A DNA stretch of 64,000 nt from Candidatus Forterrea multitransposorum CG_2015-17_Forterrea_25_41 (GTDB taxonomy: Archaea; Iainarchaeota; Iainarchaeia; Iainarchaeales; CSSED10-239): the NCBI GenBank assembly GCA_009392915.1, contig CP045477.1, forward strand, positions 96,001 through 160,000. The letters are read 5' to 3'. The first letter of the stretch is position 1. The number at the start of each line of letters is the position of its first letter. Shown here in pieces: positions 10,525 to 62,544 of this stretch. Under the pieces are notes generated by a model. It was given only the letters and a program-made list of their open reading frames with translations. It did not search any database and had not been told where the DNA came from. The position numbers and the translations under genes were made by a program.

Positions 10525-10546
10525 AATAAACTGAGGTGTTTTGAAA

Positions 10547-10930
10547 ATGAAATTAAATATTGCAGACCCAAAAAAAGCAAAAACATATTCCATAGAAGCA
10601 GATGAAAAAAATAGTCTTTACTTTGTTGGAAAAAAATTAAAAGATGAAGTTGATTTATCTTTCATTGCAGCAGGACTTAAAGGAGTAATTACTGGTGGTT
10701 CTGATAAAGATGGTTTTCCAATGCACGGAGCACTCGATTCAGAAAATAGAAAAAAATTATTATTATCTGGTGGAGTTGGATTTAAACCTACAAGAAAAGG
10801 TGAAAGAAGAAGAAAAAGAGTTGCTGGAAGAATAATTACAACACACATTCAACAAATAAATATTAAAGTAACTGCAGGAGATTCAGCAGTTTTAGAAGAA
10901 AAACATACAAAAAAAGATGAAAAAAAATAA
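10547..10930 (+). CDS. rps6e: 30S ribosomal protein S6e
   Basis: MKLNIADPKK..GGSDKDGFPM..GERRRK.V.G pattern of S6e. SD GAGGTG at 10533-10538 favours ATG 10547 over the track start TTG 10541. Confidence 0.85.
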   Translation: MKLNIADPKKAKTYSIEADEKNSLYFVGKKLKDEVDLSFIAAGLKGVITGGSDKDGFPMHGALDSENRKKLLLSGGVGFKPTRKGERRRKRVAGRIITTHIQQINIKVTAGDSAVLEEKHTKKDEKK

Positions 10931-10957
10931 AAGGATAAAATAAGTAGGTATTAATAT

Positions 10958-12163: not shown

Positions 12164-12554
12164 TGTTTTGATTGATACTAATGTATTAATCTATATGTAT
12201 GAAAACAAAAAAGATATCTTTGATTATGTTACAGTTTTAATCCCTGATCCTAAGTTTTTTATTTTAGATAAAGTTTTTGATGAACTTTCAAAAGTTTATA
12301 AAGCTAAACCAAATAAATTTTTAGGTATTAAAAGATATTTAGAAAAATTAAAAGAAATAAATAAGTTTGAAATTATTGAAGTTGGAGAAGATGTTTTAAG
12401 TCTTAGTGTTAAATTTACAAAAATAGATAACTTATTAATATATTACAGTAATAAATATTTAGTATATACAAATGATAAAATATTAAAAGATAAAATTAAA
12501 AAAAAAGGAAATAGAGTTTTAACTTTAAAAAATAATGGTGTTTTATTAATTTAA
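12147..12554 (+). CDS. PIN-domain nuclease (Fcf1/Utp24-like, COG1412-type) of the aIF2gamma-PIN-Rpo7 cluster
   Basis: VLIDTNVLIY start of a PIN fold and later ..YTNDK.L acidic site. Sits in the conserved position between aIF2gamma and rpoE. Likely start ATG 12147, overlapping the aIF2gamma stop (track start 12117). Confidence 0.7.
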   Translation: MGRLNNVLIDTNVLIYMYENKKDIFDYVTVLIPDPKFFILDKVFDELSKVYKAKPNKFLGIKRYLEKLKEINKFEIIEVGEDVLSLSVKFTKIDNLLIYYSNKYLVYTNDKILKDKIKKKGNRVLTLKNNGVLLI

Positions 12555-12583
12555 AAAAAAATATAAAAAGAGGAAGATTTTAT

Positions 12584-13213
12584 ATGGGTTATAAAAAATT
12601 TGATGTAGAAGGAATCGTTTCAGTATCTCCTTTAAATTTATCTGGAGAATTAAAAGATATTTTAAAAGAACAATTATCAATTAACTATGATGGTGTTATT
12701 GATAAAGACATAGGTCTTATAATTGCAATAACAGATGTTTTAGATCATAGTGAAGGAGAAATTATTCCTGGAGATTCAGATGTTTTCTTTAAAGTTAAAT
12801 TTAGAGTAATAAGTTTTCTTCCTAAATTACATGAAGTTATTAGAGGTAGAGTTACACAAGCAACTGATTTTGGTGCTTTCATAAATATTGGCCCTTTTGA
12901 AGGTTTATGTCACGTATCTCAAGTAATGCCAGATTTTAATTCTTATAACCCTGAACTTCCTGGTTTCTTTGCAAAAGAAAGTAAAAAAACATTAGTGGTT
13001 GAAGATAAAGTTTTAACTAGAATTTCAAACATTAGTTTTAAGAAAACAATTGCTGAAACAAAAATTGGTCTTACAATGAGACAAACAGGTCTTGGTAAAG
13101 AAGAATGGATTGCAATTGATGCAAAGGCTGAGAAGAAAACTACTAAAAAAACATCTAAAAAAGATGATACTAAAGAAAAAAAGACCACAACTAAAAAAGG
13201 TGGTAAAAAATGA
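12584..13213 (+). CDS. rpoE: RNA polymerase subunit E prime (Rpo7) with S1 domain and K/T-rich tail
   Basis: N-terminal Rpb7-like fold followed by the S1 motif GRVTQATDFGAFINIGPFEGLCHVSQV. Tail is KKTTKKTSKKDDTKEKKTTTKKGGKK. Confidence 0.9.
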   Translation: MGYKKFDVEGIVSVSPLNLSGELKDILKEQLSINYDGVIDKDIGLIIAITDVLDHSEGEIIPGDSDVFFKVKFRVISFLPKLHEVIRGRVTQATDFGAFINIGPFEGLCHVSQVMPDFNSYNPELPGFFAKESKKTLVVEDKVLTRISNISFKKTIAETKIGLTMRQTGLGKEEWIAIDAKAEKKTTKKTSKKDDTKEKKTTTKKGGKK

Positions 13214-25300: not shown

Positions 25301-25959
25301 TTGAAGTATCTGGTCAAAACTTTTATTCTAGTAATTTAATTTTTGTAAATGACTCTAATGTAGATAAAGTAATTTCTTTTATTGAAGTAATACCTAAAGA
25401 ATTTGAAAAATCTTCAGATAATATTTATTTTGATAGAAATATTGTTGTAATTGATAAAGATCCAATAATTCTTTATAATTTAGTAATTCCTAAAAATTCT
25501 TCTCTTACAACAAAATATATTAGTCAAACAGCAATTACAAGTTTTGATATTTTAACTAAATTTGATGCAATTGTTTACAAGTCTCCTCTTCTTTTAACTG
25601 GATCTGTAAATTTAGAAGATTTAAATTTTGAAAAACCTTTAATTGATAGTAAATCTTTATTTATGATAGCAGTTGTTCTTTTAATAATAATTATCTTACT
25701 TTTAGTAATCTGGATGGTGGCTTCTGGTCGTAAGAAAAAAGAAGATGTCTTTAAAGAAATGGAACCTAAGGATGCTATGAATAAATATCTTGGAAATAAA
25801 CTAAATAGTAATTCTCAAGAAAAATCTTCAACTGATTCTTCTTCATCTAAAACTTTAGAAGAAAAAGAAGAAGAGCATAAAAGTGATCTTGAAAAGAAAA
25901 AGAAGTATGATAGTAATTATGAGTTTATTTTAGATGCTGTTAAAAGAAGTAATAAATAA
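22381..25959 (+). CDS. large type-I membrane surface protein with Fn3-like repeats
   Basis: Signal peptide. Repeated modules containing [HG]SGL[KE]EY.[IV]Y ... A.D.A.N.S (three copies). C-terminal TM LFMIAVVLLIIIILLLVIWMV plus K/E/S-rich cytoplasmic tail. Confidence 0.6.
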   Translation: MKNKILIIFLFTILLSTFIFSDPVVKINDNLTTYTNSDSENFYVEVSNTGDNCEVESDFISINLSSDAASSFPYLIYCNLERNYSGYFSVDFSTNTPTPPIPNVLVNNEDTVIADYNGFTANLVVDTINTITGTFDLNSVDSVVNNYYKGDVEVTSLSSFSDAHSGLKEYYIYIVEVDSVNDYRDDYYKRLIVDVNETSIDLGTSTTVSDGNYFVLVEALDYAENLAIPSQVILNKKNMYVDNTAPQVTSFSLGSFSEGTTYYVPSTTTTLTLLIEDDGVGVRNEPLYTQIDRDSVKLADYNSILGGFFFDFTTVDYDIDGSYELAATDLLGNLNEKTFSIMIDETSPTTPTISTVTRAVDNNVTISNWGTSTDSGSGLKEYKVYRSTSSFTEVSNQDLICTVSAAASKTCLDSTSKSDDTRYYYGVTAVDNAGNNSPVVTASIKTGPELDIYIDLEDSDFVNTVTPEITLEYGSDVNAVRFSCNASTFTSWVEVSGTSEVYESFNVTSGNGCNTDQGDKIIYVEARSEDDPYLITRESFEFELDSKAPTIPSNIEVLEQANGSLNISWTSSTDVNGSGLEEYRIYYSESESVSKSSQYMTSSDEEYIFNPNEDKTFYFKISAIDEALNESDLSSIASGTAKRFGPSFTFNASPKNLIDDVYYLKKGNVLFTITSSEELKQTPIIRLKIGNSPYKSISAIYSNLITTFNYSLEESGDSILEITGTNNNNETTTDTFNFIVDAEVPTFTADYNFFEDTKLYEFKISDFSDDVFRVQYLFNNVEEVCFIEDSNNNYLCSLDSTLYKDGNHKMYVLVYDRALNYETEIISFEIDNVDEALILKENLVAEINTNIFTIEDRISFLQAISLEVSQDVLDKFSEAKEKVVLAKSLEDSNNFSEAVNTYTSVNNSLLEILEVLPTENVLKTKTIEIDLLDNSFDLNTVILDQNILTDNLSFYDVNNQDLNFISVSREFSVFEVSGQNFYSSNLIFVNDSNVDKVISFIEVIPKEFEKSSDNIYFDRNIVVIDKDPIILYNLVIPKNSSLTTKYISQTAITSFDILTKFDAIVYKSPLLLTGSVNLEDLNFEKPLIDSKSLFMIAVVLLIIIILLLVIWMVASGRKKKEDVFKEMEPKDAMNKYLGNKLNSNSQEKSSTDSSSSKTLEEKEEEHKSDLEKKKKYDSNYEFILDAVKRSNK

Positions 25960-27769: not shown

Positions 27770-27802
27770 AATTAATCATATTTTATTATATATATTAAAT
27801 AT

Positions 27803-27874
27803 AGCTCGGAGGAGATTCGAACTCCTGTCGTAAGATCCAGGGTCTTACATGCTTGGCCTCTACACTACCGAGCT
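27803..27874 (-). tRNA. tRNA-Gln (anticodon CUG) with unusual C at position 33
   Basis: Manual cloverleaf on the reverse complement. Acceptor AGCTCGG/CCGAGCT, D stem GTGT/GCAT, anticodon stem TAAGA/TCTTA with loop CCCTGGA, T arm AGGAG-TTCGAAT-CTCCT. No encoded CCA. TATA-like box about 25 nt upstream. Confidence 0.8.
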
Positions 27875-41538: not shown

Positions 41539-42879
41539 ATGAAAAACTTAACAACTGACGATATTGGTAAAATCATAGAAATCAAAAGAAAAGTAAATAA
41601 TCAAGAGATAACTCATAAAGGTTATTTAGTTGAAATCTTAAATGATTCTTTAAAAGTTAAGCTTTTAGATAATGGTTATAATATAAGTATTTTTTCAAAA
41701 GAAATTTCTTCTTTTTCTTTAGATGAGTCTAAAGTTTCTTTAGGAAAAGTTAATTCTAAAGACTTTAAAGAAAATTCTTCTCTTCCAAATATTGTATATA
41801 TTGGAACAGGTGGAACTATTGGAACACATGTTGATTATGTTACTGGTGGAGTTACAATGTCAAGAACTCCTCAAGAAATAATTTCTACAACACCTGAACT
41901 TGAAAATATAATTAATATTAAAAAAATAGAATCTCCTTTTAGAAAAGCATCAGAAGACATTTATTATAAAGATTGGCTTGTTTTATCTGAAGTTGTTTTT
42001 AAATATTTAAATGATCCTTCAATTGACGGAATAATTATAACTCATGGAACAGATACTTTATCTTTTACAGGGAGTGCACTTTCTTTTTTAATTGAAAACA
42101 TAAATAAACCTGTTCTTTTAGTTGGTGCTCAAAGATCTCCTGATAGAGCAAGTTTTGATGGATCTTTAAATCTTATTTGTGCAGCTCGTTTTGTAAAGGA
42201 AAAAATACCTGGTGTTTTTACTGTTATGCATGGTTCTATTAATGATGATTTTTGTTCAGTTATTAAAGCTGTTAAATCTAGAAAAATGCATACTTCTAGA
42301 AGAGATGCTTTTATTCCAGTAAATGATATTGTTTATGCAAAAGTTTTTTCTGATGGTAAAATAGATTTTTTAAAAAAAGAAATTTTTTCAAAAGATAAAA
42401 TTCCTTTATTAAATAAAGAATATGAAGAAAAAGTAGCACTTATAAAAATACATCCAAATATTGATCCTTCAATAATTGATTGGTATATTGAAAAAGGTTA
42501 TAAAGGAATTATTTTTGAAGGAACTGGTTTAGGTCATGTTCCAACTGCAGAAAATAATGATTCTATTCTTCCTTTAAAATATCAGTTTATACCTTATATT
42601 AAAAAAGCAATTGAATCTAAATTAATTGTAGTTATGTCTTCCCAATGTCTTTTTGGAAGAGTAAATAATAAAGTTTATTCTAACCTTAGATATCTTTCTC
42701 AAGCAGGTGTTGAATATTTAGATTCTCATGACATTTTACCAGAAGTTTTACAAATAAAACTTTCAGTTGCTTTAAAAAAATTTAAACCAAAAGAAGAAAT
42801 AATTAAATATCTTAAGACCAATATTTCTGGCGAAATAACTTCTAAAGAAGTTCCTTCTTTTTATGATGAAGTTTTATAA
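41539..42879 (+). CDS. gatD: Glu-tRNA(Gln) amidotransferase subunit D
   Basis: Asparaginase-type motifs GTGGTIG and ITHGTDTL after an N-terminal AD1-like domain. Directly upstream of gatE. Confidence 0.9.
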   Translation: MKNLTTDDIGKIIEIKRKVNNQEITHKGYLVEILNDSLKVKLLDNGYNISIFSKEISSFSLDESKVSLGKVNSKDFKENSSLPNIVYIGTGGTIGTHVDYVTGGVTMSRTPQEIISTTPELENIINIKKIESPFRKASEDIYYKDWLVLSEVVFKYLNDPSIDGIIITHGTDTLSFTGSALSFLIENINKPVLLVGAQRSPDRASFDGSLNLICAARFVKEKIPGVFTVMHGSINDDFCSVIKAVKSRKMHTSRRDAFIPVNDIVYAKVFSDGKIDFLKKEIFSKDKIPLLNKEYEEKVALIKIHPNIDPSIIDWYIEKGYKGIIFEGTGLGHVPTAENNDSILPLKYQFIPYIKKAIESKLIVVMSSQCLFGRVNNKVYSNLRYLSQAGVEYLDSHDILPEVLQIKLSVALKKFKPKEEIIKYLKTNISGEITSKEVPSFYDEVL

Positions 42880-42900: not shown

Positions 42901-44823
42901 ATGATTAAAATTGATATAAATAATTTAGATTATGAAAAACTAGGCCTTATGTGTGGTCTTGAATTACATCAACAGTTAAACACAAATAAACTTTTTTGTA
43001 ATTGTCCTTCAAAATTAATTAATGATGATTTAAAGCCAGATAAAGTAATCCATAGACAATTAAGAGCAGTTTCTTCAGAGACTGGAGATTTAGATGTTAC
43101 TGCAAAAGAAGAACAAGATAAAAATAAAATTTTTAAATATCTTTTTTATAATTCTTGTAATTGTTTAGTTGAAACAGATTCACAACCTCCTTTAAATATT
43201 AATAAAGATGCTTTAAATATTGCTTTAGTTGTTTCTTTTTTAACAAATTCAGTTGTTGTAAATACTTCTCATGTTATGAGAAAACAAGTAATTAATGGTT
43301 CTAATGTTTCTGGTTTTCAGAGAACTACAATGATTTCAACTGATGGTTATCTTGATTTTAGTTTTGGAAAAGTAAGAATTGATAAAATTCTTTTAGAAGA
43401 AGATGCTGCTAGAACAATTGAAAAAACTGATTCTATTGTAACTTATTCTTTAGATAGGCTTGGTATTCCTTTAATAGAATTAGTTGCATGGCATGATATG
43501 CACACTCCTGAACAAGTTAAAGAAGTTGCATTATATCTTGGACAAATGTTTCGAAGTACTGGTAAAACTAAAAGAGGTTTAGGTTCAATCAGACAAGACA
43601 TTAATATTTCTATTAAAGATGGTTCTAGAGTAGAGATTAAAGGTTGTCAAGATCTTGATTTAATTCCAGAGATTGTTAATAGAGAGATTGTTCGTCAATT
43701 AAATTTAATAGATATTAAAAAAGAAGTTATTGAAAAAAATCTTACTTCATTTTCTTTAAAACCTATTATGATTAATGATTATTTTAAGCAAACTGATTCT
43801 AAAGTTGTTTTAAAATCTTTTTCAGAAAATAAAAATGCTTATTTATTTTTACTTCCTGGATTTAAGGGTTTTTTAGGTAGAGAAATTCAACCAAACAGAA
43901 GACTTGGAACTGAAATTGCAAGTGTTTTAAAAATGAGAACTACTCTAAAAGGTCTTTTCCATTTAGATGAACTTCCAAATTATGGTATTACAGAAAAAGA
44001 AGTTAATTTAATTAAAAAAGATTTTTCTGTTAAAGAAAATGATTCCTTTATAATTATTTTTTCTTCTGAAAATGAAATTTCTTCAGTTAAAAATGTAATT
44101 GAAGATAGACTTAATAAACTTAAAGACGGGGTTTTAAAAGAAACTAGAGCTTCAACTGTTGAAGGAAATACAGAATATCAAAGACCTCTTTCAACTTCTT
44201 CAAGAATGTATCCTGAAACTGATCTTTCACCAATTGTTTTTAATGAAGAATTATTAGCTTTAGCTAAAAAAGAAGTTCCTTTATCTTTAGAAGATAGAAA
44301 AAAATTATATGTTGATACTTTTAAACTAAGTTCACAACTTGCAGATAAAATGAAACTTAATAATTTTGCACCAATTTTTGAAAAAATAGTTTCTGAATAT
44401 AAAATTAATCCTACAACTCTTTCAGTATTTTTACTTGAAGATTTAATTAAAGCTTCAAGAGAAGGAGTTTTAGATCTTGATGATGTTAATGATTCTTTAT
44501 TAATTAATTTTTTTAAAACAAAAGATTTGTTTAACAGAATTAATAAAAATAAACTTTTAGATGTCTTTATTGAATTTTTAAAAAATCCTCTTGATTTAGA
44601 AAGAATTATTCAAGAAAATAAAAAAGAGGATTTATCTTTTGATGTATTAACTAATATTATTGATCAAGTAATAGATGAAAATAAAGATTTTATTTTAAAA
44701 CAAAAAGAAAGATCTTTAGGTTTATTGATGGGAAGAGTAATGTCTAAAACTGAAAATAAATATGATGGGAAAATTATTTCTCAAACAATTAAAGAAAGAT
44801 TAAATCTTTTTTTAAAAAATTAA
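42901..44823 (+). CDS. gatE: Glu-tRNA(Gln) amidotransferase subunit E
   Basis: MCGLELHQQL...KLFC.CP..., ..NVSGFQRT.., ..GSIRQDINISI.. GatB/GatE core with the archaeal insertion domain. 640 aa. Confidence 0.9.
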   Translation: MIKIDINNLDYEKLGLMCGLELHQQLNTNKLFCNCPSKLINDDLKPDKVIHRQLRAVSSETGDLDVTAKEEQDKNKIFKYLFYNSCNCLVETDSQPPLNINKDALNIALVVSFLTNSVVVNTSHVMRKQVINGSNVSGFQRTTMISTDGYLDFSFGKVRIDKILLEEDAARTIEKTDSIVTYSLDRLGIPLIELVAWHDMHTPEQVKEVALYLGQMFRSTGKTKRGLGSIRQDINISIKDGSRVEIKGCQDLDLIPEIVNREIVRQLNLIDIKKEVIEKNLTSFSLKPIMINDYFKQTDSKVVLKSFSENKNAYLFLLPGFKGFLGREIQPNRRLGTEIASVLKMRTTLKGLFHLDELPNYGITEKEVNLIKKDFSVKENDSFIIIFSSENEISSVKNVIEDRLNKLKDGVLKETRASTVEGNTEYQRPLSTSSRMYPETDLSPIVFNEELLALAKKEVPLSLEDRKKLYVDTFKLSSQLADKMKLNNFAPIFEKIVSEYKINPTTLSVFLLEDLIKASREGVLDLDDVNDSLLINFFKTKDLFNRINKNKLLDVFIEFLKNPLDLERIIQENKKEDLSFDVLTNIIDQVIDENKDFILKQKERSLGLLMGRVMSKTENKYDGKIISQTIKERLNLFLKN

Positions 44824-46203: not shown

Positions 46204-46238
46204 TTTTTTTCACAATTAGTTTTTTTTTAAAAAATTAT

Positions 46239-46310
46239 AGTCCGGAGGAGATTCGAACTCCTGTCGCCAGGTTCAAAGCCTGACATGCTTGGCCACTACA
46301 CTACCGGACT
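46239..46310 (-). tRNA. tRNA-Gln (anticodon UUG)
   Basis: Manual cloverleaf on the reverse complement. Acceptor AGTCCGG/CCGGACT, anticodon stem TCAGG/CCTGG, loop CTTTGAA, T arm AGGAG-TTCGAAT-CTCCT. Near-identical D and T arms to the tRNA at 27803. Confidence 0.9.
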
Positions 46311-46443
46311 ATTTTATTTAGCAAAGAAATATTTTCTTTTCTATTAATATCTAAAAAAGGAAGGGTTTTTATTTCTTTATTAAGTTAAATATTTAATAAT
46401 AGAAATATTTTTATATACTATTCTTTATAAATTAATATATAAA

Positions 46444-46518
46444 GGGAGTGTAGCTTAGTCTGGTTGGAGCACTCGACTGATAATCGAGAGGCCGCAGGTT
46501 CGAATCCTGCCATTCCCA
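46444..46518 (+). tRNA. tRNA-Ile (anticodon GAU)
   Basis: Acceptor GGGAGTG/CATTCCC, anticodon stem CTCGA/TCGAG, loop CTGATAA, T arm GCAGG-TTCGAAT-CCTGC, discriminator A. TTTATAAATT box about 20 nt upstream. Confidence 0.9.
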
Positions 46519-46559
46519 CTTTCTATTTTTATATAGATTTTAAAAAAAGAGGATAATTT

Positions 46560-49076: not shown

Positions 49077-49415
49077 ATGAAAGTAAAAGATATAAAACCT
49101 TTCCAAAAAAAAATAAGTCTTTTATGTAAAGTAATTTCAAAGACTGAAATAAGAAAAGTAGTTTCAAGATTAGATGAAATTGAACATAAAGTTTGTGAAG
49201 CTTTAATTGGTGATGATACTGGTGTTGTTTATCTTACTTTATGGGATTTATCTATAGAAAATTTACAAGAAGGTAAGGTTTATTCTTTTGAAAATCTTTA
49301 TTCTTCAGAGTTTAAAAAATCTTTAAGACTTAATCTTGGAAGATTTGGAGAATTTAAAGAAGTTTCTCAAGAAATTGAAGTAAACAAAGAAAATAATCTT
49401 TCAAAAGAAGTTTAA
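49077..49415 (+). CDS. single OB-fold ssDNA-binding protein (RPA/SSB-like)
   Basis: 112 aa. IKPFQKKISLLCKVISK..., ..EALIGDDTGVVYLTLWD.., ..GKVYSFENLY...F.....L.LG pattern of short archaeal OB-fold SSBs. Confidence 0.55.
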   Translation: MKVKDIKPFQKKISLLCKVISKTEIRKVVSRLDEIEHKVCEALIGDDTGVVYLTLWDLSIENLQEGKVYSFENLYSSEFKKSLRLNLGRFGEFKEVSQEIEVNKENNLSKEV

Positions 49416-49450: not shown

Positions 49451-49525
49451 GGAAGTGTAGCTTAGTCTGGTTAGAGCATTGGTCTTATACACCAAAGGTC
49501 GCAGGTTCGAATCCTGCCATTTCCA
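49451..49525 (+). tRNA. tRNA-Ile (anticodon UAU)
   Basis: Acceptor GGAAGTG/CATTTCC, anticodon stem TTGGT/ACCAA, loop CTTATAC (UAU), T arm GCAGG-TTCGAAT-CCTGC. D and T arms almost identical to tRNA-Ile(GAU) at 46444. Confidence 0.85.
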
Positions 49526-49582
49526 CTTTTTTTTAAAAATAAAGCTTTATAAATCTAATTAACTACTATATATTAGATAATT

Positions 49583-52527: not shown

Positions 52528-52603
52528 GGCAAAGATTAACCTTCATTCTAATTTTAATCTTTTGCCAAAATTTTAAGCTTTAAAGGTAGGTGGGCAAAAA
52601 TTA
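52528..52603 (+). promoter_or_regulatory. ileS leader hairpin with alternative pairing onto the SD/start region
   Basis: GGCAAAGATTAA (52528-52539) pairs with TTAATCTTTTGCC (52554-52566), 12 bp with one bulge. The nearly identical GGCAAAAATTA (52593-52603) overlaps the spacer and start codon and could pair with the same 3' arm. Confidence 0.35.
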
Positions 52604-55443
52604 TGTTTTCAAATCAAAATGAAAAAGAAATAAAAGAGTTTTGGGAAAAAAATAATATTCCTAAAAAAGTAAGAGAAAAAGAGTCTGATAAACATTATTA
52701 TTTTATAGACGGACCTCCATATGCAACAGGTTCTATTCATTTAGGAACTGCAATGAACAGGATCTTAAAAGATATTCTTTATAGGTTTAAAAGACAAGAA
52801 GGTTTTAAGGTTTTAGACATTCCTGGTTTTGATACTCATGGTGTGCCAATAGAACGTAAGGTGCAAAAAAAATATGATTTAAAATCAAAAGAAGATATTG
52901 AAGCTTTTGGTATTGAAAAATTTTCAAAAGAATGTCATGCATTTGCAACTAAACACATCTCTGAAATGTCAAAAGATATTTATGATTTAGGACAATGGAT
53001 GGATTGGGAAAATCCATATAGAACTTTAGATCAAACCTATATGCAATCTGCTTGGTGGACTTTTAAAAAAGCTTTTGATAAAGGTCTTTTATTTCATGAC
53101 AAATATCCTATCCATGTCTGTCCTGATTGTGAAACTTCAGTTTCTTTTAATGAAATTGAATATCAAGATTTAACTGATCTTTCAATTTTTGTTTCCTTAC
53201 AATCAAAAGAAGATTCTTCTCTTTTCTTTGTTATTTGGACAACAACTCCATGGACTCTACCTGCAAACATGGCAATCATGGTTCACCCTAAATATACATA
53301 TGTTGAGCTTATCTCAAACAATAAAAAATATATTGTTGCAAAAGATTTATCTGAAAAATTAATAAAAGAATTTAATTTTGAAAACTATACTTTAGGTAAA
53401 GAATATTTAGGAGAAGAACTTGTAGGTAAAGAATATCTTCCTGTTCTAGGAGAATGGTTAAATCTTCCTGAAGATTATACAAAAAATGCATATAAAATAA
53501 TCTCTTCAGCAAGACATGTAAACCTAGAAGACGGTTCTGGTTTAGTTCATTGTGCTCCAGGACATGGTAAAGAAGATTATCAAGTTGGAAGAGAATTTAA
53601 TATTCCTATATTTTCTCCGGTTACAATGTCAGGTGAGTATGATGATTCTGTTTCTTTTGGAAAAGGAAAAAAAGTTAAAGAACTTGATTTAGATATAATG
53701 AAATATTTACATGAAAAAGAATGTATCTTAGCTAAAAGAAAAGTAAAACATAGTTACCCTACATGTTGGAGATGTCATAATCCTTTAATAATGGTATCTT
53801 TACCTCAGTGGTTTTTAAGAATTGAAGATTTAAAACCAAGACTTGTAGAACTTAATGAAAGTGAAGTTTCTTGGCATCCTTCTTGGGGAAAAGATAGATT
53901 TTCAAACTGGCTTAAAAATTTATCTGATTGGCCAATTTCAAGAGCAAGATATTGGGGAACTCCTGTTCCTATTTGGAAATGTGATAACTGTGAAAAAATA
54001 CATGTCTTTGAGTCTTTAGAAGATTTAAAGAAAAAAGCTCCTGAAGTAGATTTAAATATGGATATTCATAAACCATTTATTGACAAAATAGAAATTACTT
54101 GTGATTGTGGAACAAAGGTGAAAAGAATTCCAGAAGTATTTGATGTTTGGTTTGATTCTGGTGTTGCATCATGGGCATCTTTAGGTTATCCTTTCAAAAA
54201 AGAATTATTTGATAAATATTGGCCAGCAGATGCTAATTTAGAAGGTCCTGATCAAATAAGAGGTTGGTGGAATTCTCAAATAATTGCTTCTGTAATTGCT
54301 TTTGATAAAGTTCCATTTAAACAAATTTCTATGCATGGTATGGTTCTTGCTGGAGATAAAAGAAAGCTTTCTAAATCTGAAGGAAATGATATTCCTTTAA
54401 TTGAAAGATTTTCACAAACTTCAATTGATTACTATAGATATTATTTTGCAAAAGAATTTTCAGGAGAAGACATTGTTTTAGATTCTAAAAAATTTGATGA
54501 AGTTAGAAGAACTTTAAATCTTTTAGAAAATCTTTATAATTTCATTTCTCTTTATGATGAAAAACAAACATTTGTAACTTCTTTAGATGTTTCAAAAGAA
54601 ACTTTACTTGTTGAAGATAAATGGATTCTTTCAAGATTTAATAATCTTTTAAAAAATAGTTATGCAAACTTTTCAACAACTAACTATTCAAAAGTTATAA
54701 ATGATTTTGAAAAATTTTTGCTTGAAGATTTTAGTAGAATATATGTTAAACTTTTAAGAAAAAGAAAAGATGAAAATCATGTTCTTTCATATGTCTTTTC
54801 CTCAAGTTTAATATTGATCTCACCAATAGTTCCTCATTTTACAGAATTCATGTATCAAAAGTTTTCTGTAAAAGAAAAAGAATCTGTGCATTTCTACCAT
54901 AATCCTTTAATCAATGAAAGTTTAATTGATTTAGATCTTGAAAAGAACTTTGACCTTTCTCAAGAAGTTGTAAAAACAGCTCTTTCTTTAAGAGAGGACT
55001 TAAAGAAAAGATTAAGATGGATCTTACCTGAAATGCATGTTGTTTTAAAAGACTTTGAAAAAATATCTATCTTTAAGGAAATTATAGAAGATATGGCAAA
55101 TATTGAAAATGTAAGTTTTTCAAATAATGCTCCTGATAACATGCCTTCAAAAGAAGTTTTAAAAGATGTTTTTGTATACATTAATGAAAACATTGATTCT
55201 TCTTATAAAGAAGTTTGGGAAGTATCAGAGCTTACAAGGCTTATACAGTCTGAGAGAAAGAAACAAAAGTTAAATCCAAATGATAAAGTTTCTTTGAAGA
55301 TATCTTGTAGTGAAAAAGATTTCCTTGTAAAAAATAAACCTAAAATTGAAGATGCAACAAACACTATTCTTGATATCTTGGACGATTTAAGTGAAGACAA
55401 TAAACAAAAGTTAATAGAGAGAGAAGTTTCTTTCTCTTTTTAA
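52603..55443 (+). CDS. ileS: isoleucyl-tRNA synthetase
   Basis: HIGH (PPYATGSIHLGTAMN) and KMSKS (KLSKS) motifs, editing domain, Cys clusters CPDC/CWRCHNP/CDNC/CDCG. 946 aa. Confidence 0.95.
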   Translation: MFSNQNEKEIKEFWEKNNIPKKVREKESDKHYYFIDGPPYATGSIHLGTAMNRILKDILYRFKRQEGFKVLDIPGFDTHGVPIERKVQKKYDLKSKEDIEAFGIEKFSKECHAFATKHISEMSKDIYDLGQWMDWENPYRTLDQTYMQSAWWTFKKAFDKGLLFHDKYPIHVCPDCETSVSFNEIEYQDLTDLSIFVSLQSKEDSSLFFVIWTTTPWTLPANMAIMVHPKYTYVELISNNKKYIVAKDLSEKLIKEFNFENYTLGKEYLGEELVGKEYLPVLGEWLNLPEDYTKNAYKIISSARHVNLEDGSGLVHCAPGHGKEDYQVGREFNIPIFSPVTMSGEYDDSVSFGKGKKVKELDLDIMKYLHEKECILAKRKVKHSYPTCWRCHNPLIMVSLPQWFLRIEDLKPRLVELNESEVSWHPSWGKDRFSNWLKNLSDWPISRARYWGTPVPIWKCDNCEKIHVFESLEDLKKKAPEVDLNMDIHKPFIDKIEITCDCGTKVKRIPEVFDVWFDSGVASWASLGYPFKKELFDKYWPADANLEGPDQIRGWWNSQIIASVIAFDKVPFKQISMHGMVLAGDKRKLSKSEGNDIPLIERFSQTSIDYYRYYFAKEFSGEDIVLDSKKFDEVRRTLNLLENLYNFISLYDEKQTFVTSLDVSKETLLVEDKWILSRFNNLLKNSYANFSTTNYSKVINDFEKFLLEDFSRIYVKLLRKRKDENHVLSYVFSSSLILISPIVPHFTEFMYQKFSVKEKESVHFYHNPLINESLIDLDLEKNFDLSQEVVKTALSLREDLKKRLRWILPEMHVVLKDFEKISIFKEIIEDMANIENVSFSNNAPDNMPSKEVLKDVFVYINENIDSSYKEVWEVSELTRLIQSERKKQKLNPNDKVSLKISCSEKDFLVKNKPKIEDATNTILDILDDLSEDNKQKLIEREVSFSF

Positions 55444-55982: not shown

Positions 55983-57287
55983 ATGGAAAAAAAATATTTA
56001 TCAATAAAAGAAGTTTTAGAAAAGAAAGAAGGAGAGGTATCTTTAAGAGGATGGGTACACAGGTTTAGAGACCAAAAGACAACAATCTTTATAACCTTAA
56101 GAGATGTTACAGGGGTAATACAACTTGTGTGTGATCAAGATAAAGTATCTCCAGAGCTTTTTGAAAAAATAAAACAAACAACTATAGAATCATCAATAGT
56201 TGTTTCTGGAACTGTAAGAAAAGAAGAAAGATCTCCTCAAGGTTATGAAATTGATATAAAAGATTATGAGATTGCAGGTCTTGCAGAAACTTATCCAATA
56301 TCAAAAGATTTTTCTGAAGAATTTCTTTTAGATGTAAGACACTTATGGTTAAGATCAAGAAAAATGCAAGCAATCTTAAAAATAAGATCAACTGTCTTTA
56401 GAGCTATTCATGATTATTTTAGAAGTCAAGATTATTATGAATATCAATCTCCAGTTCTTCAGTCAGTTCAATGTGAAGGAGGATCAAGTTTATTTAAGGT
56501 TGATTACTTTGAAAAGAAAGGTGTCTTTTTAGCACAGACATGGCAATTGTATGCAGAGCCAGCTATCTTTTCTTTAGAAAGAATATATACAATCTCTCCA
56601 TCTTTTAGAGCGGAAAAGTCAAAGACAACAAGACATTTAGCTGAATATTGGCATGCAGAGATGGAAGGAGCTTGGGTTTCTTTTGAAGAGTTACAAGAGC
56701 ATGCAGAAGGTTTAATAAAAAAAGTAATCTCTGATGTTTTAAAACACCATAGAGATGATCTTGAAACTTTAAAGAGAGATGTTAAAGTTTTAGAAACTGC
56801 AATTTCAAAACCTTTTGTAAAAATGACATACACCGAAGCTTTAGAGATTTTAAAAAAAGAGCATGACATGCATGTTGAATGGGGAAAAGACCTAAGAACT
56901 GTTGAAGAGGATCTTTTATCTAAAATGTATGATACTTTTATTATTATTACAAGATATCCAAAAGAAGTAAAAGCTTTTTATATGAAAGAAGATCCACAAG
57001 ACCCTAGAGTAGTTTTAGGTTTTGATTGTATCGGTCCTGAAGGTTATGGTGAGATTATAGGTGCAAGTGAAAGAGAGGATGATATTAAAAAAATAGTTGA
57101 AAGACTTGAAAAAGACGGAGAAGATGTCTCACAATATGATTTCTATCTTGACACTAGAAAATATGGTTCTGTCCCTCATTCTGGTTTTGGAATGGGTGTT
57201 GAAAGAATAATCTCTTATATCATAAAAGCTGATACAATAAAGGATGCTATTGCTTTCCCTAGAACAATGGTAAGGTATAGACCTTAA
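55983..57287 (+). CDS. asnS: class IIb aminoacyl-tRNA synthetase, AsnRS-like (Asn/Asp not fully resolved)
   Basis: N-terminal OB anticodon-binding domain. Motif 2 FRAEKSKTTRHLAEYWHAEME is closer to AsnRS FRAENSNTSRHLAEFW than to archaeal AspRS. Motif 3 GFGMGVERII...AFPR. 434 aa. Confidence 0.7.
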   Translation: MEKKYLSIKEVLEKKEGEVSLRGWVHRFRDQKTTIFITLRDVTGVIQLVCDQDKVSPELFEKIKQTTIESSIVVSGTVRKEERSPQGYEIDIKDYEIAGLAETYPISKDFSEEFLLDVRHLWLRSRKMQAILKIRSTVFRAIHDYFRSQDYYEYQSPVLQSVQCEGGSSLFKVDYFEKKGVFLAQTWQLYAEPAIFSLERIYTISPSFRAEKSKTTRHLAEYWHAEMEGAWVSFEELQEHAEGLIKKVISDVLKHHRDDLETLKRDVKVLETAISKPFVKMTYTEALEILKKEHDMHVEWGKDLRTVEEDLLSKMYDTFIIITRYPKEVKAFYMKEDPQDPRVVLGFDCIGPEGYGEIIGASEREDDIKKIVERLEKDGEDVSQYDFYLDTRKYGSVPHSGFGMGVERIISYIIKADTIKDAIAFPRTMVRYRP

Positions 57288-57595: not shown

Positions 57596-58099
57596 ATGTT
57601 AAATAATAAAGTTAATGCTGTAATTGACTCTTCATTTTGGATAAACTTGAGTAGAGTTGATCTTACAAAATATTTATTAGATTATTTTACTATTTATTCT
57701 ACCATAAAAGTAAAAGAAGAACTTTTTGATTTTTACGAAAGAAGAGGTTATTTTTCAAAAGATTCTTATCTTTTTAAGTTATATTTAGAAGCAGATTTTA
57801 TTATTTTAAAAGACCTTAAAGAAATTACTTTAAAAATAAAGCAAGAATTGTCAAAAGATTCTGGAGAGTTATATTCTGCTGCTCTTTTAAAGGAAATTGG
57901 AGGTGTTTTTTTAACAGATGATAAGGGGGCACTTAATTTTTGCAAAAATAATAATCTTTTTGCAATTACTTCTGTTTATTTAATAGTTAGACTTTATAAG
58001 GATAATTTAATATCAAAAGAAAAAGCTAAATTTTCAATTATGCGATTAAAAGGAAAAATAAGTAATATACATATACAATCTGCTTTAAAGGATTTATAG
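57596..58099 (+). CDS. PIN-like nuclease, DUF3368-type toxin
   Basis: N-terminal VIDSSFWINL (acidic PIN site), later ..GELYSAALLKEIG..FLTDDKGA... Directly followed by a UPF0175 gene, the usual partner of DUF3368. Confidence 0.6.
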   Translation: MLNNKVNAVIDSSFWINLSRVDLTKYLLDYFTIYSTIKVKEELFDFYERRGYFSKDSYLFKLYLEADFIILKDLKEITLKIKQELSKDSGELYSAALLKEIGGVFLTDDKGALNFCKNNNLFAITSVYLIVRLYKDNLISKEKAKFSIMRLKGKISNIHIQSALKDL

Positions 58100-58119: not shown

Positions 58120-58476
58120 ATGGTTAAAAAAGATTATAAATTGAAATCTTATAGATTATCTGATAGTTCCTTAAAATTAATATATAATGTTTCTAAAGAA
58201 AAAGATTTGAGTGAATCTGAAGCTTTAAGAATGTTAGTTGACAAAGGGCTTTATGAATATAAGTTAGAGTCAGCAATAAAAACATATTATGATAAAAATT
58301 TAGATTTAACTGCTGGAGCAAAACTTGCTGGTATTTCCAAAAGAGAGTTTATGGAAGAACTTTCAAGAAAAGGGGAAGGTATTAATCTTTCAAAAGAAGA
58401 TTATGATTATTCTAAAAAATCTTTTGAAAAATTATTTGGAAAAACAAAAAAGAAAACTACTCAAAAGCCCAAGTAG
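58120..58476 (+). CDS. UPF0175-family antitoxin-like protein
   Basis: ..AIKTYYDKNLDLTAGAKLAGISKREFMEELSRKGEGI matches the UPF0175 core. The N-terminal part looks RHH-like (KSYRLSDSSLKLI). Confidence 0.6.
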   Translation: MVKKDYKLKSYRLSDSSLKLIYNVSKEKDLSESEALRMLVDKGLYEYKLESAIKTYYDKNLDLTAGAKLAGISKREFMEELSRKGEGINLSKEDYDYSKKSFEKLFGKTKKKTTQKPK

Positions 58477-59905
58477 TTTTTTCTTTAGAATCAAAAAGAA
58501 TAACTCCTTTTTTCTTAAGGTTTATTCTTATGATGTCTGCTTCTTCCCATTTCTTAGAATCTCTTAATTCTTGTCTTTTTAAAATTAATTTTTCAATTTC
58601 TTCAACAGGCATTTTATTTTTTGCTTTATTTTCACTATTACTTTCAAAATTTAAAACTTTAAAAACAAGATTTACTTTTTTCAAAAATTCTAAAATCTGT
58701 GATGCTTCTTCTCTGGTTAATTTTTCTTGATCCATTAGTTTGTTTGTTTCTTTTACAAGGAAAAAGATTTGCGCCCATGCATTTGGTGTGTTAAGATCAT
58801 CATCCATGGCTTTTTCAAAATTAAAGATTGATGTTTCAATAATTTCTTTTGCATAAAACATTTCTTTTTCTTGTTTAACTTCTTGAAGTCTTCTTATATA
58901 GTTGTTTAGGTTTTGTAAAGTTTTTTTAGCATCTAAAATAGATTGTTCTGTATAGTTTTGTGGTTTTCTATAATGTCCTGTTGAGAAAACATATCTAAGT
59001 TCTTCAGCTGTATTTTTCTTTAAAAAGTCTTCAATGGTTATAAAGTTTCCTAAGGATTTTCCCATTTTCTTTCCATCAATTGAAAGCATTGCTGTATGTA
59101 CCCAGTAGTTTACCATCTTATGATTTAAACAACCAAAGTTTTGTGCAATTTCATTTTCATGATGAGGGAAAACATGTTCTATTCCTCCGCCATGAATATC
59201 AAAATTATCTCCAAGATATTTATTACCCATAACTGAACATTCCATGTGCCAACCAGGATAGCCAAGACCCCATGGAGAATTCCATTTCAAGATATGCTCT
59301 GATTTTGCTTTTATCCAAACTGCAAAGTCTGCTGGGTTTTTCTTTTCTTCATCATTTTTAAATCTTGTATCTTTTAAAAGATCTTCAATCTTTCTGTTTG
59401 AAAAAGAACCATATTCTGAATATTTTGAAACATCAAAATAAATTCCATTTTTAGTTTCATATGCAAAACCATTTTCAAGAAGTTTTTTAACCCATTCTAT
59501 TATTTCTGGAACATGTGCTGAGGCTTGTGGTTCTATGTTTGGTCTTGATATTTTTAAATCATCAAAAGCTTTCCACATTCTATGTGAATATTTATAAGCA
59601 AGTTCCATTGGGTGTACTTTTCTTTCTTTTGCTCTTTTTGTCATTTTGTCTTCTCCAGAATCTCCTAAGCCATCATCTGTTAGATGACCAACATCTGTAA
59701 TGTTTCTAACATAGAAAATCTGGTAGTTATGAAAAATTTTAAAATAATTGATTAAAAGATCATAGTAGATATATGACATTGCATGCCCTAAATGAACATC
59801 ATCATAAACAGTTACTCCACACACATATATTTTAAGTAAACCTTTTTCAACAGGTTTAAAGGCTTCTTTTTTTCTTGTAAGTGTGTTGTAGAGTTTTATT
59901 GTCAT
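58457..59905 (-). CDS. cysS: cysteinyl-tRNA synthetase
   Basis: CGVTVYDDVHLGHA (HIGH), KMGKSLGN (KMSKS), ..GGIEHVFPHHENE.. 482 aa. Confidence 0.95.
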   Translation of the reverse strand: MTIKLYNTLTRKKEAFKPVEKGLLKIYVCGVTVYDDVHLGHAMSYIYYDLLINYFKIFHNYQIFYVRNITDVGHLTDDGLGDSGEDKMTKRAKERKVHPMELAYKYSHRMWKAFDDLKISRPNIEPQASAHVPEIIEWVKKLLENGFAYETKNGIYFDVSKYSEYGSFSNRKIEDLLKDTRFKNDEEKKNPADFAVWIKAKSEHILKWNSPWGLGYPGWHMECSVMGNKYLGDNFDIHGGGIEHVFPHHENEIAQNFGCLNHKMVNYWVHTAMLSIDGKKMGKSLGNFITIEDFLKKNTAEELRYVFSTGHYRKPQNYTEQSILDAKKTLQNLNNYIRRLQEVKQEKEMFYAKEIIETSIFNFEKAMDDDLNTPNAWAQIFFLVKETNKLMDQEKLTREEASQILEFLKKVNLVFKVLNFESNSENKAKNKMPVEEIEKLILKRQELRDSKKWEEADIIRINLKKKGVILFDSKEKTTWAFE

Positions 59906-60141: not shown

Positions 60142-62544
60142 ATGCAAAAGAGATTAGGTATTTTAGGTATTTTTTTAATAGTTTTAATGTTTGTTTTTTC
60201 ATCAGGCTTTGTTTTTGCTGAAAATTCATTTGTAAGTTATAGTTCTACTTCAAAAGTAGGTTGGGAAATAACTTCTGCTGAAATTACAAATGATAATATT
60301 GAAATTAATTACATGAATAATCTTGAAGCAAGAGATTCTTGTAAAACAAATGAAAGAACTTTTATGTGGGTTCCTTTTGCAACAGAATATAGAGGTTTGT
60401 TTTTAGTAACTCTTTTTGTTCCTAATAATTTTAATAATGAATCTGGATTTGATTCATTTTTGTATGATAATTTGTCTGACAGAGGAAAAAGTGAAAATGA
60501 AACAGAAGATACTCTTAAAAAATATGAACGATATTTAAAAAGTAATGATCCTACTTTTATGAATTATTTAAATAGTTATGTTAGTGAAGATAAATATTTT
60601 TATATAGTTAAAATTGAAGATGATTTTAAACAAAATAAAAATTATACTCATAATATTGATTTAAGTATGATTAATGAATTAGATAAATTTGGAAAAGTTT
60701 ATATTTATTTATATGATCATTGTGGAAGTTTATCTTCATTTTATCATAATGACTATAAAATTTCTAAAAATCTTGCGAAAGCAGTTTATAATTTTAGTGA
60801 TGGTCAAGAAGAAACTTCTAAAAAAGAAAATGCTACTTCAATAAAATTATCTTCTTCTATTGAAGATAATAAAATAAAATTAGATTCAAATGTTACTGAT
60901 AATGTTAATATTTATTATACATTAGATGATTTTAATTTAGAAAACCATTTTAAATCAAAATTTGTTGAATTTAATTATAATAAAGAAAAAATAAATACTT
61001 ATCTTAAAAGTAATTCTTGGAATATTAATCAATTTGGGGTAAATTTTAAAGTGACTAAATATACTGCACCTGTATCTTTATCTTCTGGACAAAAACTAAA
61101 TGCAATTGCAGTTAATTATGATAATTTTACTTTAAGTAATTATCTTGAAGGAATTACTCTTTCATCTTCTGAAAATTATTCTTCATCTTCTCAAAGCAAT
61201 AATTTTTCAATTAACTTTAAAGAAGATAAAAAAACAGATAATGTGATTTGTGAAAAGGAAACAAAAATTTGTTATGTTAAATTTAATCAAAACATTGATT
61301 TAGATTTAATTGCAAATAAAGTAAATGATGGAAATGTTTATTTTTATATTAATGATATAGAAGGAGATATTGAAAATATTGTAAAAAGCTTATCTTCTCC
61401 TCTTTTAAATATTACACCACCTGCTAAATTAAATGATAATAAACTAAGTTTAGGAAGTAATTTATTCAAATATTCAGATTTAGAAAATTATACTCTAAAT
61501 CTTAATCAAAATGAATCAAAGTTTTTTACTATTAGTGCTTTCCAATTAAATACAAATGTTGATAAGTTATATTTTGTATTTTTACCTGACGAAAACTTTG
61601 AAGATTTAGTAAAATATAAAACTTTACAAAAAATAATAAATTCTGTATATTGTGATGGTTGTAAAATTCCAGATTGGATGCCAAATGGATTAATAATTGA
61701 TAATCAAAATTTATCTACTAGTGATCCTGATCCTTCTACTAGTGATCCTGATCCTTCTACTAGTGATCCAAATTGTAAATATACTGGTGATTTTGAAATT
61801 TTATGTGATTTTCATATCTTTAATTTAGATAAAGATATTGGAAGTAGTTCTATTGATAGTTCAGCAGGAACATTTAGCCCTAAAGAAACATATTATTTAG
61901 AAATTGAATATTTTTATAATGATAAAAAAAATAATTTTAATAAAAATTTAGAAGCTTATAAATTATTTGAATCTGAAAAAAATAATTTTAATCTTACTGA
62001 AAATGAAATTACAATATTTTTTTCAATAATTGGAGGAGAATCCTCTTTTTTAAATGATCAAGCTGGTGATCAAGGAGAATCTATAGGTTTAACTCAAATA
62101 AATAAACCTATATGGAGAACAGAAAGTGGTTTTAATGATCTAAAAGTATATCTTCCAAGTGAAGTTAATACAGTTGAAAAATATTATAAATATTTTGATG
62201 ATTCTAAAAATGATTTAAATAAATCTTTATATTTAGGTCTTGCAGTTTTTAAATATAATTTAAATTATGCTAAAAATAATATTTCTAACTTTAATTCAAA
62301 GTATTCAGATATTGATAGAGCATTTATAATGTTTTACGCACACCAGTTTAATATAAGAGATACAAAAACATTCTTTAATACTGTAAATATTCCTACAGAT
62401 AAAGAAAATGTAATTATTAATTGTGCAGGAACTGGTAATGATTTATTCCAAAATTCTTCTTTAAAGAAACTTGGTTGTGTTGCGACTGTAGGTTCTGTAA
62501 GAAAAATTGGATGGTATCTTAATTACATAAATAATTTAAATTAA
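60142..62544 (+). CDS. secreted 800-aa protein with C-terminal lytic-transglycosylase-like (SLT, PF01464-like) domain
   Basis: Signal peptide LGIFLIVLMFVFSSGFVFA. C-terminal ..IIGGESSFLNDQAGDQGESIGLTQI.. matches the SLT pattern ES.F...A.S..GA.GLMQ. Downstream ..LYLGLAVFKYNL.. and ..FIMFYAHQ.. resemble later SLT helices. An STSDPDP linker precedes it. Confidence 0.55.
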   Translation: MQKRLGILGIFLIVLMFVFSSGFVFAENSFVSYSSTSKVGWEITSAEITNDNIEINYMNNLEARDSCKTNERTFMWVPFATEYRGLFLVTLFVPNNFNNESGFDSFLYDNLSDRGKSENETEDTLKKYERYLKSNDPTFMNYLNSYVSEDKYFYIVKIEDDFKQNKNYTHNIDLSMINELDKFGKVYIYLYDHCGSLSSFYHNDYKISKNLAKAVYNFSDGQEETSKKENATSIKLSSSIEDNKIKLDSNVTDNVNIYYTLDDFNLENHFKSKFVEFNYNKEKINTYLKSNSWNINQFGVNFKVTKYTAPVSLSSGQKLNAIAVNYDNFTLSNYLEGITLSSSENYSSSSQSNNFSINFKEDKKTDNVICEKETKICYVKFNQNIDLDLIANKVNDGNVYFYINDIEGDIENIVKSLSSPLLNITPPAKLNDNKLSLGSNLFKYSDLENYTLNLNQNESKFFTISAFQLNTNVDKLYFVFLPDENFEDLVKYKTLQKIINSVYCDGCKIPDWMPNGLIIDNQNLSTSDPDPSTSDPDPSTSDPNCKYTGDFEILCDFHIFNLDKDIGSSSIDSSAGTFSPKETYYLEIEYFYNDKKNNFNKNLEAYKLFESEKNNFNLTENEITIFFSIIGGESSFLNDQAGDQGESIGLTQINKPIWRTESGFNDLKVYLPSEVNTVEKYYKYFDDSKNDLNKSLYLGLAVFKYNLNYAKNNISNFNSKYSDIDRAFIMFYAHQFNIRDTKTFFNTVNIPTDKENVIINCAGTGNDLFQNSSLKKLGCVATVGSVRKIGWYLNYINNLN
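61714..61770 (+). repeat. perfect 21-nt in-frame tandem repeat (2.7 copies) encoding STSDPDP
   Basis: TCTACTAGTGATCCTGATCCT at 61714-61734 and 61735-61755, then TCTACTAGTGATCCA at 61756-61770. Confidence 0.95.

Follow-up and report, generated by a model that had tools for sequence, protein, structure and literature searches.

Only at the split between AUA and AUG does the genetic code oblige almost every bacterium and archaeon to use a specially modified cytidine, and organisms that do without it reveal the minimal alternative. In the usual archaeal system, AUA is read by tRNA-Ile2(CAU), in which C34 is converted to agmatidine (agm2C) by TiaS, beside tRNA-Ile1(GAU). We know of no work that has shown how archaea adapted to decoding AUA with U34. 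Here we analyse a 64,000-nucleotide stretch of the archaeon Candidatus Forterrea multitransposorum (contig CP045477.1, positions 96,001 to 160,000; hereafter the window), which carries a tRNA-Ile gene with the anticodon UAU. This tRNA would do the same AUA-specific job beside tRNA-Ile(GAU) as the canonical one, but it is encoded with UAU rather than being converted from a CAU gene by TiaS. We consider it very probable that the organism decodes AUA independently of TiaS, the UAU tRNA replacing both tRNA-Ile2(CAU) and TiaS in a reduced genome.

The UAU solution is already known, and the window provides a new Iainarchaeota example of it, not a new mechanism. Cases in a nanoarchaeon and a korarchaeon are the older ones (PMC3895270), and a survey of 167 archaeal genomes found UAU tRNA-Ile only in these two (PMC6000648). 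ARMAN-2, -4 and -5 (Micrarchaeota/Parvarchaeota) followed in 2011, with TiaS and tRNA-Ile(CAU) lost (PMC3239211), and by 2013 metagenomes had yielded 371 distinct tDNA-Ile(TAT) sequences (PMC3575796). Like Nanoarchaeum equitans, Korarchaeum cryptofilum and the ARMAN lineages, the last of which are also DPANN archaea, the window organism combines a small genome with a genomic UAU tRNA for AUA, and its UAU tRNA, like that of Korarchaeum, is closest to the organism's own tRNA-Ile(GAU) (PMC6000648). However, the window comes from another phylum, and the intron at 37/38 in the genes of Korarchaeum and ARMAN-2 is absent from the window gene. Neither the linkage to ileS nor the phylum-wide anticodon arm found here has been described for N. 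equitans, Korarchaeum or ARMAN.

The minor eukaryotic tRNA-Ile with the anticodon psi-A-psi (psi, pseudouridine) likewise comes from a UAU gene and works with an isoleucyl-tRNA synthetase (IleRS) of the eukaryote/archaeal type alongside a major Ile tRNA, which is the IAU isoacceptor in eukaryotes but the GAU isoacceptor in the window. The intron of the eukaryotic gene is needed to form psi34 and psi36, and since the window gene is without one, an intron-dependent pseudouridine route is unlikely here. In Mycoplasma mobile, as in the window, a tRNA-Ile2(UAU) reads AUA in a reduced, AT-rich genome; its C34-modifying enzyme has been lost, its U34 carries no modification, and a substitution in IleRS together with the ribosome provides the specificity (PMC3575796). 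In both organisms, IleRS and ribosome would have to accommodate U34, but the components differ. The M. mobile IleRS is of the bacterial type, with an adaptive Arg865 in its C-terminal Zn domain, whereas the window IleRS is of the eukaryote/archaeal type with a different, shorter C-terminus, and the Arg that M. mobile IleRS has at the wobble-contacting Trp position is without counterpart in it. Furthermore, the M. mobile UAU tRNA derives from a CAU tRNA, whereas that of the window resembles the GAU isoacceptor.

The gene and the sequence directly 3' of it are as follows:

49451..49525, + strand: tRNA-Ile(UAU) gene (ARAGORN, Rfam RF00005, sequence, synteny and covariation)
49527..49534, + strand: T8 run directly 3' of tRNA-Ile(UAU), read from the sequence

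ARAGORN called a tRNA-Ile with anticodon TAT at 49451-49526 (+), and Rfam RF00005 matched 49451-49525 over its full length with 75.5 bits (E = 9.7e-15; gathering score 29). Both programs thus return the anticodon and fold that the original prediction had read from a genomic tRNA-Ile(UAU) with the loop CTTATAC. The loop C32-U33-U34-A35-U36-A37-C38 occupies 49484-49490, with the anticodon U34-A35-U36 at 49486-49488, and the complete anticodon arm is UUGGU-CUUAUAC-ACCAA. The discriminator is A73, and CCA is not encoded. We looked for an intron in the sequence and the Rfam alignment and found a continuous cloverleaf of 75 nt with nothing inserted after position 37. A search pattern for intron-less UAU tRNAs, in which C32 and A37 were preset, matched once in the window and in 0 of 100 shuffles. 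Oligo-T serves as a termination signal in archaea, and the position of the T8 run suggests such a role, although AT-rich runs are frequent in a genome of 24% GC.

The isoacceptor for AUU and AUC lies about 3 kb away on the same strand:

46444..46518, + strand: tRNA-Ile(GAU) (ARAGORN, as 46444-46519; Rfam, 72.9 bits)

The two tRNAs are identical at 63 of 75 positions (84%), and eight of the 12 differences fall in the anticodon arm. From GAU to UAU, G34 becomes U at the wobble position, A38 becomes C, and both members of three stem pairs are exchanged (27-43 from C-G to U-A, 29-41 from C-G to G-C and 31-39 from A-U to U-A). The acceptor stem differs by a single compensatory pair (G3-C70 to A3-U70), its other six of seven pairs being identical, and the last two differences lie in the D loop (G21 to A) and the variable loop. 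Both tRNAs have the same D stem, T arm and A73, so that the earlier description of the gene as a near-twin of tRNA-Ile(GAU) differing mainly in the anticodon stem-loop is borne out. A37 adjoins U36 in the UAU tRNA, and by sequence comparison the gene has the features of Ile identity (a GAU-like body, A73 and A37).

A pair this similar, 3 kb apart on one strand and 84% identical, might be the product of a recent duplication of tRNA-Ile(GAU), with a possibly non-functional copy whose anticodon mutated by chance. We regard this as extremely improbable. Three anticodon-stem pairs differ and all three changes are compensatory, the covariance score of the UAU gene exceeds that of the GAU gene (75.5 against 72.9 bits), the same UAU arm is found even where the IleRS of the relative is just 46% identical, the gene keeps its position and synteny, and AUA, at 3% of codons, needs a reader. 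We also compared the GAU/UAU isoacceptor pairs of three genomes, namely the window (46444-46518/49451-49525), L112 (733-809/6875-6952) and L244 (3335-3410/6677-6753). The T arm (GCAGG/CCUGC) is common to both Ile isoacceptors in all three. Acceptor pairs 5-68 and 6-67 track the genome, not the anticodon, in two of them (window and L112); the two Ile tRNAs of L244 have different pairs at 5-68 and 7-66 of the acceptor stem. Because the same UAU arm occurs across relatives with differing T arms, we take it to be a module that is old and specific to the anticodon. Outside the arm, the molecule suggests co-evolution with the GAU isoacceptor under a single IleRS, or homogenisation by gene conversion. 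The near-twin likeness is accordingly not read as a sign of recent duplication, since the UAU arm is kept in distant relatives while acceptor and T arms track each genome's own GAU isoacceptor; the pattern would fit an old duplication overlaid by co-evolution of the isoacceptors or by gene conversion.

We then consider how far this tRNA is conserved. A scan with the UAU pattern over one genome per GTDB species gave at least 120 loci (L002-L121). Among the matches listed, at least 22 further archaeal genomes carry a UAU tRNA, as do at least about 98 bacterial ones, mostly of the Candidate Phyla Radiation (CPR). UAU tRNAs thus appear to be spread far more widely among DPANN archaea and CPR bacteria than the original prediction allowed for: it had called a UAU tRNA-Ile a rarity of N. 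equitans and Korarchaeum, a picture that was outdated by the 2011 ARMAN report and the 371 metagenomic sequences of 2013, and now also by these archaeal genomes. The CPR/Patescibacteria among the matches listed include Saccharibacteria, Paceibacterota and Nomurabacteria, and a literature search found no paper tying tilS or lysidine loss to CPR. The closest of the matches listed, L112, has a UAU tRNA 88% identical to that of the window.

In a comparative set of 23 archaeal UAU tRNAs, 98.5% of the cloverleaf cells are paired, against 31-46% with partners slid, and compensatory, double-sided change occurs at 12 of the 21 cloverleaf pairs. The covariation score is 0.603 compared with 0.200 in shuffles, and none of 500 shuffles reached it. 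Because cloverleaf pairing and covariation are kept in all 23 archaeal genes, these point to a functional gene family rather than a decaying duplicate, and they mark the window gene as a genuine, conserved and functional genomic tRNA. Its anticodon arm is identical in L244, L242, L032, L088 and L066. The pair G30-C40 and U31 are invariant in the 23 archaeal genes, and U31 (23 of 23) sets these apart from the bacterial UAU tRNAs among the matches listed, of which only 35 of 98 have it (p = 2.6e-9). Two subtypes can be told apart. C38 with A39 or G39 characterizes an Iainarchaeota-like group that includes the window, and A38 with G39 is found in Micrarchaeota and in metagenome-assembled genomes (MAGs) labelled Thermoplasmata and Marsarchaeota.

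On either side of the tRNA-Ile(UAU) gene are two genes that recur in its relatives:

49077..49415, + strand: Ssb-like OB-fold gene (Pfam PF21473), upstream neighbour of tRNA-Ile(UAU), used as a synteny anchor only
52603..55443, + strand: ileS, isoleucyl-tRNA synthetase of 946 aa, eukaryote/archaeal 'type 2' (TIGR00392, Pfam, 8C9D)

The Ssb-like OB gene is directly upstream of tRNA-Ile(UAU) in L112, L244, L245 and L242 as in the window, and ileS follows the tRNA 3.08 kb downstream on the same strand. In L244 and L245, Iainarchaeum sp. MAGs reached through IleRS homologues, the gene order equals that of the window, running from GatE, HIT, tRNA-Gln(UUG), tRNA-Ile(GAU), thermosome and Ssb-like OB to tRNA-Ile(UAU) and on to a 469-aa protein, a Na/H antiporter, IleRS, an AspRS-like gene and CysRS. 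About 3.1-3.2 kb separate tRNA and ileS in the window and in L244 (UAU tRNA at 6677-6753, ileS at 10001-12856 in the latter), and in both the gap holds a membrane-like protein of 457-469 aa and the Na/H antiporter. In L242, whose IleRS is 46% identical to that of the window, the UAU tRNA (9844-9918) lies just 83 nt upstream of ileS (10001-12856), again on the same strand. Same-strand linkage of tRNA-Ile(UAU) to ileS was seen across the Iainarchaeota loci compared (window, L244, L245 and L242). In L244 and L112, tRNA-Ile(GAU) keeps its place with respect to tRNA-Gln(UUG) and the thermosome gene, and L112 carries tRNA-Gln(UUG) and tRNA-Ile(GAU) near its UAU tRNA. L242 also has an inverted repeat at 9918-9957, which starts at the tRNA 3' end upstream of ileS and whose 19-nt arms are 84% complementary. 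We considered a regulatory hairpin between tRNA and ileS and dropped it, because neither the window nor L244 has a conserved counterpart of this repeat and palindromes rich in AT are abundant there.

The window IleRS matched NCBIfam TIGR00392 (ileS) with 763.7 bits, as well as Pfam tRNA-synt_1 and Anticodon_1 and MupA/MupB-like models. Its best solved structure is 8C9D, a type-2 IleRS, to which residues 3-914 align over positions 10-924 of 1032, whereas the bacterial IleRS of Staphylococcus aureus aligns only up to residue 802. At 946 aa the protein is similar in length to those of its relatives (942-967 aa), and this short form is typical of the clade. The C-terminal region is about 75-100 aa shorter than that of 8C9D (1032 aa). 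In bacterial IleRS, the C-terminal region contacts the anticodon.

The codon that this tRNA would read is common. In 45 window open reading frames (ORFs), AUA makes up 529 of 17,419 codons (30.4 per 1000, or 3.0%), which amounts to 31% of Ile codons and 2.4 times AUG, in agreement with the earlier statement that AUA codons are very abundant. AUC, by comparison, accounts for 5.5% of Ile codons (5.4 per 1000). Internal AUG reaches only 12.7 per 1000 codons; such low Met usage would cut the cost of AUG misreading by a U34 tRNA, and may simply reflect AT bias. If the UAU tRNA were charged with Met or another amino acid, AUA would not mean Ile, as in many mitochondria. This is a formal possibility that we consider practically negligible. 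In three orthologue pairs between the window and L112, 18 of 25 window AUA codons stand opposite Ile (11 AUA, 6 AUU and 1 AUC) and one opposite Met. Against the Methanococcus maripaludis chaperonin 3KFB, AUA is opposite I or V in 10 of 15 cases, a profile like that of AUU, and AUG is opposite M in 9 of 15. The acceptor stem (six of seven pairs), D stem and T arm of the UAU tRNA also match tRNA-Ile(GAU). Because AUA has Ile or Val rather than Met as its counterpart in near and remote homologues alike, these alignments identify it as a major Ile codon and exclude a code change.

We next turn to the enzyme that the UAU tRNA would make dispensable. The TiaS domain signature (PF22641, PF01336, PF23783 and PF08489) was found by Pfam in no ORF of the 64-kb window. 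With Archaeoglobus fulgidus TiaS as the probe, its sequence validated against PDB 4RVZ, tblastn gave best E values of 5.5 in the window and 4.6 over all sequences searched, and no TiaS in the window or related loci. A hidden Markov model (HMM) based on 150 representatives out of 1,054 TiaS clusters likewise found none in the window (best 9.5 bits, E = 0.32) or in six related loci. Among 240 TiaS homologues listed, the named ones belong to Archaeoglobi, Methanococcales, Thermoplasmatota, Halobacteriota and Methanomicrobia, and the best 120 matches to A. fulgidus TiaS are all Archaeoglobi; in this list, which is far from exhaustive, no DPANN name appears, Diapherotrites and Iainarchaeum included. 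The most AT-biased TiaS representative, P0324, is of the Methanococcales type. A literature search found no paper on agmatidine or TiaS across DPANN lineages, and neither TiaS nor arCOG01115 or COG1571 has an entry in the supplements to the Undinarchaeota paper.

ARAGORN found no CAU tRNA in the 64-kb window. A metagenome scan for Ile-like CAU tRNAs used an over-permissive pattern, and the matches listed (at least 120) are mostly high-GC bacterial tRNA-Ile2 or Met genes. Three metagenomic contigs of 33-41% GC (L156, L157 and L213) have a CAU tRNA, of Ile2 or Met type, with an archaeal-type D loop (GGACCCGTAGCTCAGTCTGGTTAGAGC...CTCATAACCGG...). Because these low-GC archaeal contigs keep a CAU tRNA, low GC alone would neither force its loss nor predict a switch to UAU.

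In the mechanism that we propose, tRNA-Ile(UAU), a minor Ile tRNA, would be made as a stand-alone transcript, with CCA added after transcription. The single IleRS encoded 3 kb downstream would charge both Ile tRNAs, because the D stem, T arm, A73 and nearly all of the acceptor stem are common to the UAU and GAU tRNAs, and as an enzyme of the eukaryote/archaeal type it is expected to accept a U34 anticodon. U34 would then pair directly with the A of AUA, and tRNA-Ile2(CAU) and TiaS would most probably have been lost from the reduced genome. Discrimination against AUG would most likely act through the UAU-specific arm (G30-C40, U31-A39 and C38), probably joined by a co-adapted ribosome and IleRS and by competition from Met-tRNA, with or without modification of U34. 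What the data show is the gene with its fold, conservation and synteny, and that AUA stands for Ile; charging by this IleRS, the disappearance of TiaS and tRNA-Ile2(CAU), and the means of avoiding AUG are inferred. The conservation of the UAU arm argues that the tRNA itself may carry part of the AUG-avoidance solution.

Several points speak against such TiaS-independent decoding or limit what can be said for it. Our searches for TiaS and tRNA-Ile2(CAU) covered about 64 kb of a genome of 664-840 kb (about 10%). Expression and charging of tRNA-Ile(UAU) are predictions from sequence. C32 and A37 were preset by the search pattern, and their uniformity in the comparative set therefore carries no weight. 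In Lactobacillus plantarum and L. casei, tilS is present together with a TAT tRNA, so that the two systems can co-exist (PMC3575796). In haloarchaea, engineered U34 Ile tRNAs acquire 5-cyanomethyluridine (cnm5U) and bind codons in the order AUA > AUG > AUU, but they are poorly charged, bind AUG and slow growth (PMC3895270). Because of this behaviour, a UAU anticodon alone guarantees neither accuracy nor charging.

The limited coverage and the Lactobacillus precedent would both fit a redundant system, in which TiaS and tRNA-Ile2(CAU) are kept elsewhere in the genome and the UAU tRNA adds capacity for the frequent AUA codon; the archaeal-type CAU tRNAs retained in the low-GC contigs L156, L157 and L213 are in keeping with it too. 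However, TiaS was not found in the window or the six related loci, no Diapherotrites or Iainarchaeum is named among the 240 TiaS homologues listed, and the archaea studied so far pair a UAU tRNA with loss of TiaS and the CAU tRNA (PMC3239211, PMC3575796, PMC3895270). A genome of 0.66-0.84 Mb is, moreover, unlikely to retain a redundant enzyme and tRNA pair, and we consider redundant decoding improbable. Loss of TiaS, and with it replacement by the UAU tRNA, remains our reading; the loss is highly likely in view of the precedents and of genome reduction, and is not a direct result of the searches.

How AUG misreading is avoided was already asked in the original prediction, and the question is still open in the literature, where tRNA and ribosome are proposed to have co-evolved in natural UAU users (PMC3895270). 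An alternative, which concerns only this last step of the mechanism, is that AUA-only reading comes mainly from enzymatic modification of U34, to psi or to another, possibly undescribed, U derivative, and not from co-evolution with an unmodified U34. Eukaryotes use psi34, haloarchaeal U34 in Ile tRNA becomes cnm5U (PMC3895270), and the strictly conserved G30-U31 and loop context of the 23 archaeal genes could be an enzyme recognition element. On the other hand, the window gene does not have the 37/38 intron of the Korarchaeum and ARMAN-2 UAU genes, cnm5U34 does not block binding to AUG (PMC3895270), M. mobile copes with an unmodified U34 (PMC3575796), and there is no modification enzyme among the window ORFs. 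We therefore regard a decisive role of U34 modification as quite possible, although on balance we do not favour it over co-evolution of tRNA, ribosome and IleRS.

A wider reading is more speculative. The Iainarchaeota, and perhaps much of DPANN, might have replaced agmatidine-based AUA decoding across the clade with an ileS-linked UAU tRNA whose fixed arm reads AUA and not AUG, which we think rather unlikely as a whole. On this reading the long-fixed arm (G30-C40, U31-A39 or U31-G39, C38 or A38) would be the determinant of a route new to archaea, in which it either recruits a new U34 modification or works with a co-adapted ribosome and an IleRS with a short C-terminus. If true, this would be the convergent counterpart of a tRNA(UAU) solution that appears to be very common among CPR bacteria.

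As to the organism, the window has about 24% GC and carries archaeal hallmarks, among them aIF5B, aIF2-gamma, GatD/GatE, a thermosome subunit, ribosomal proteins of the archaeal/eukaryotic type and a class III signal peptide. An identical IleRS occurs on JGI metagenome contig Ga0100381_1000002 (663,621 bp), in 85 data blocks, and in NCBI MAGs (NCP72327.1, NCP79502.1, NCP97445.1 and NCQ07269.1) on contigs of up to 839,632 bp. The named close homologues of its IleRS are from Iainarchaeum/Diapherotrites (43-64% identity), with one Micrarchaeota protein (48%) as the sole exception, and the 90% cluster that contains its aIF5B also holds a Candidatus Iainarchaeum sp. member. NCBI taxonomy places Iainarchaeota within the DPANN kingdom Nanobdellati. 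These relatives identify the organism as a DPANN archaeon of the Iainarchaeota/Diapherotrites and not of the Nanoarchaeota, so that of the suggested DPANN/Nanoarchaeota-like affiliation the first half stands and the second does not. The UAU tRNA, which had been taken as support for DPANN, is not diagnostic, given that such a tRNA also occurs in MAGs with Thermoplasmata and Marsarchaeota labels.

With AUA at 3% of all codons, decoding accuracy matters in this organism. Since engineered U34 Ile tRNAs are poorly charged in haloarchaea and misread AUG (PMC3895270), some adaptation of tRNA, synthetase or ribosome must have taken place in natural users. For such adaptation the locus offers experimental handles in the phylum-conserved UAU arm, the adjacent short type-2 IleRS and a GAU isoacceptor with the same body. 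Because the organism is uncultivated and the known picture is unchanged, the value of the locus is comparative and not decisive. AUG avoidance is a genuine question, although not a new one, and this locus alone does not make it directly testable.

ARAGORN found four tRNA genes in the window, the two Ile isoacceptors and two tRNA-Gln genes:

27802-27874, - strand: tRNA-Gln(CUG) (ARAGORN)
about 46237-46311, - strand: tRNA-Gln(UUG) (ARAGORN)

The genes gatD and gatE of the archaeal indirect Gln-tRNA pathway (41539-42879 and 42901-44823) are on the strand opposite both tRNA-Gln genes. tRNA-Gln(UUG) and tRNA-Ile(GAU) are divergent and 133 nt apart, an arrangement also present in L244. Between the AspRS-like gene (55983-57287) and CysRS (58457-59905, -) lies a toxin-antitoxin-like pair, a DUF3368 PIN-like protein and a UPF0175 protein at 57596-58099 and 58120-58476. 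It looks like a recent insertion, because the pair is missing at the same spot in the syntenic L244. Large secreted or surface proteins are typical of episymbiotic DPANN archaea, and very large proteins of this predicted kind are encoded at 4562-7531, 22381-25959, 60142-62544 and from 62611 onward. They include one with a class III signal peptide, CHB_HEX_C and an InlB B-repeat, one with Big_13, and one of 800 aa without a family. A 1289-aa protein overruns the window end, and the syntenic L244 has a 1290-aa protein with leucine-rich repeat (LRR) domains at that place.

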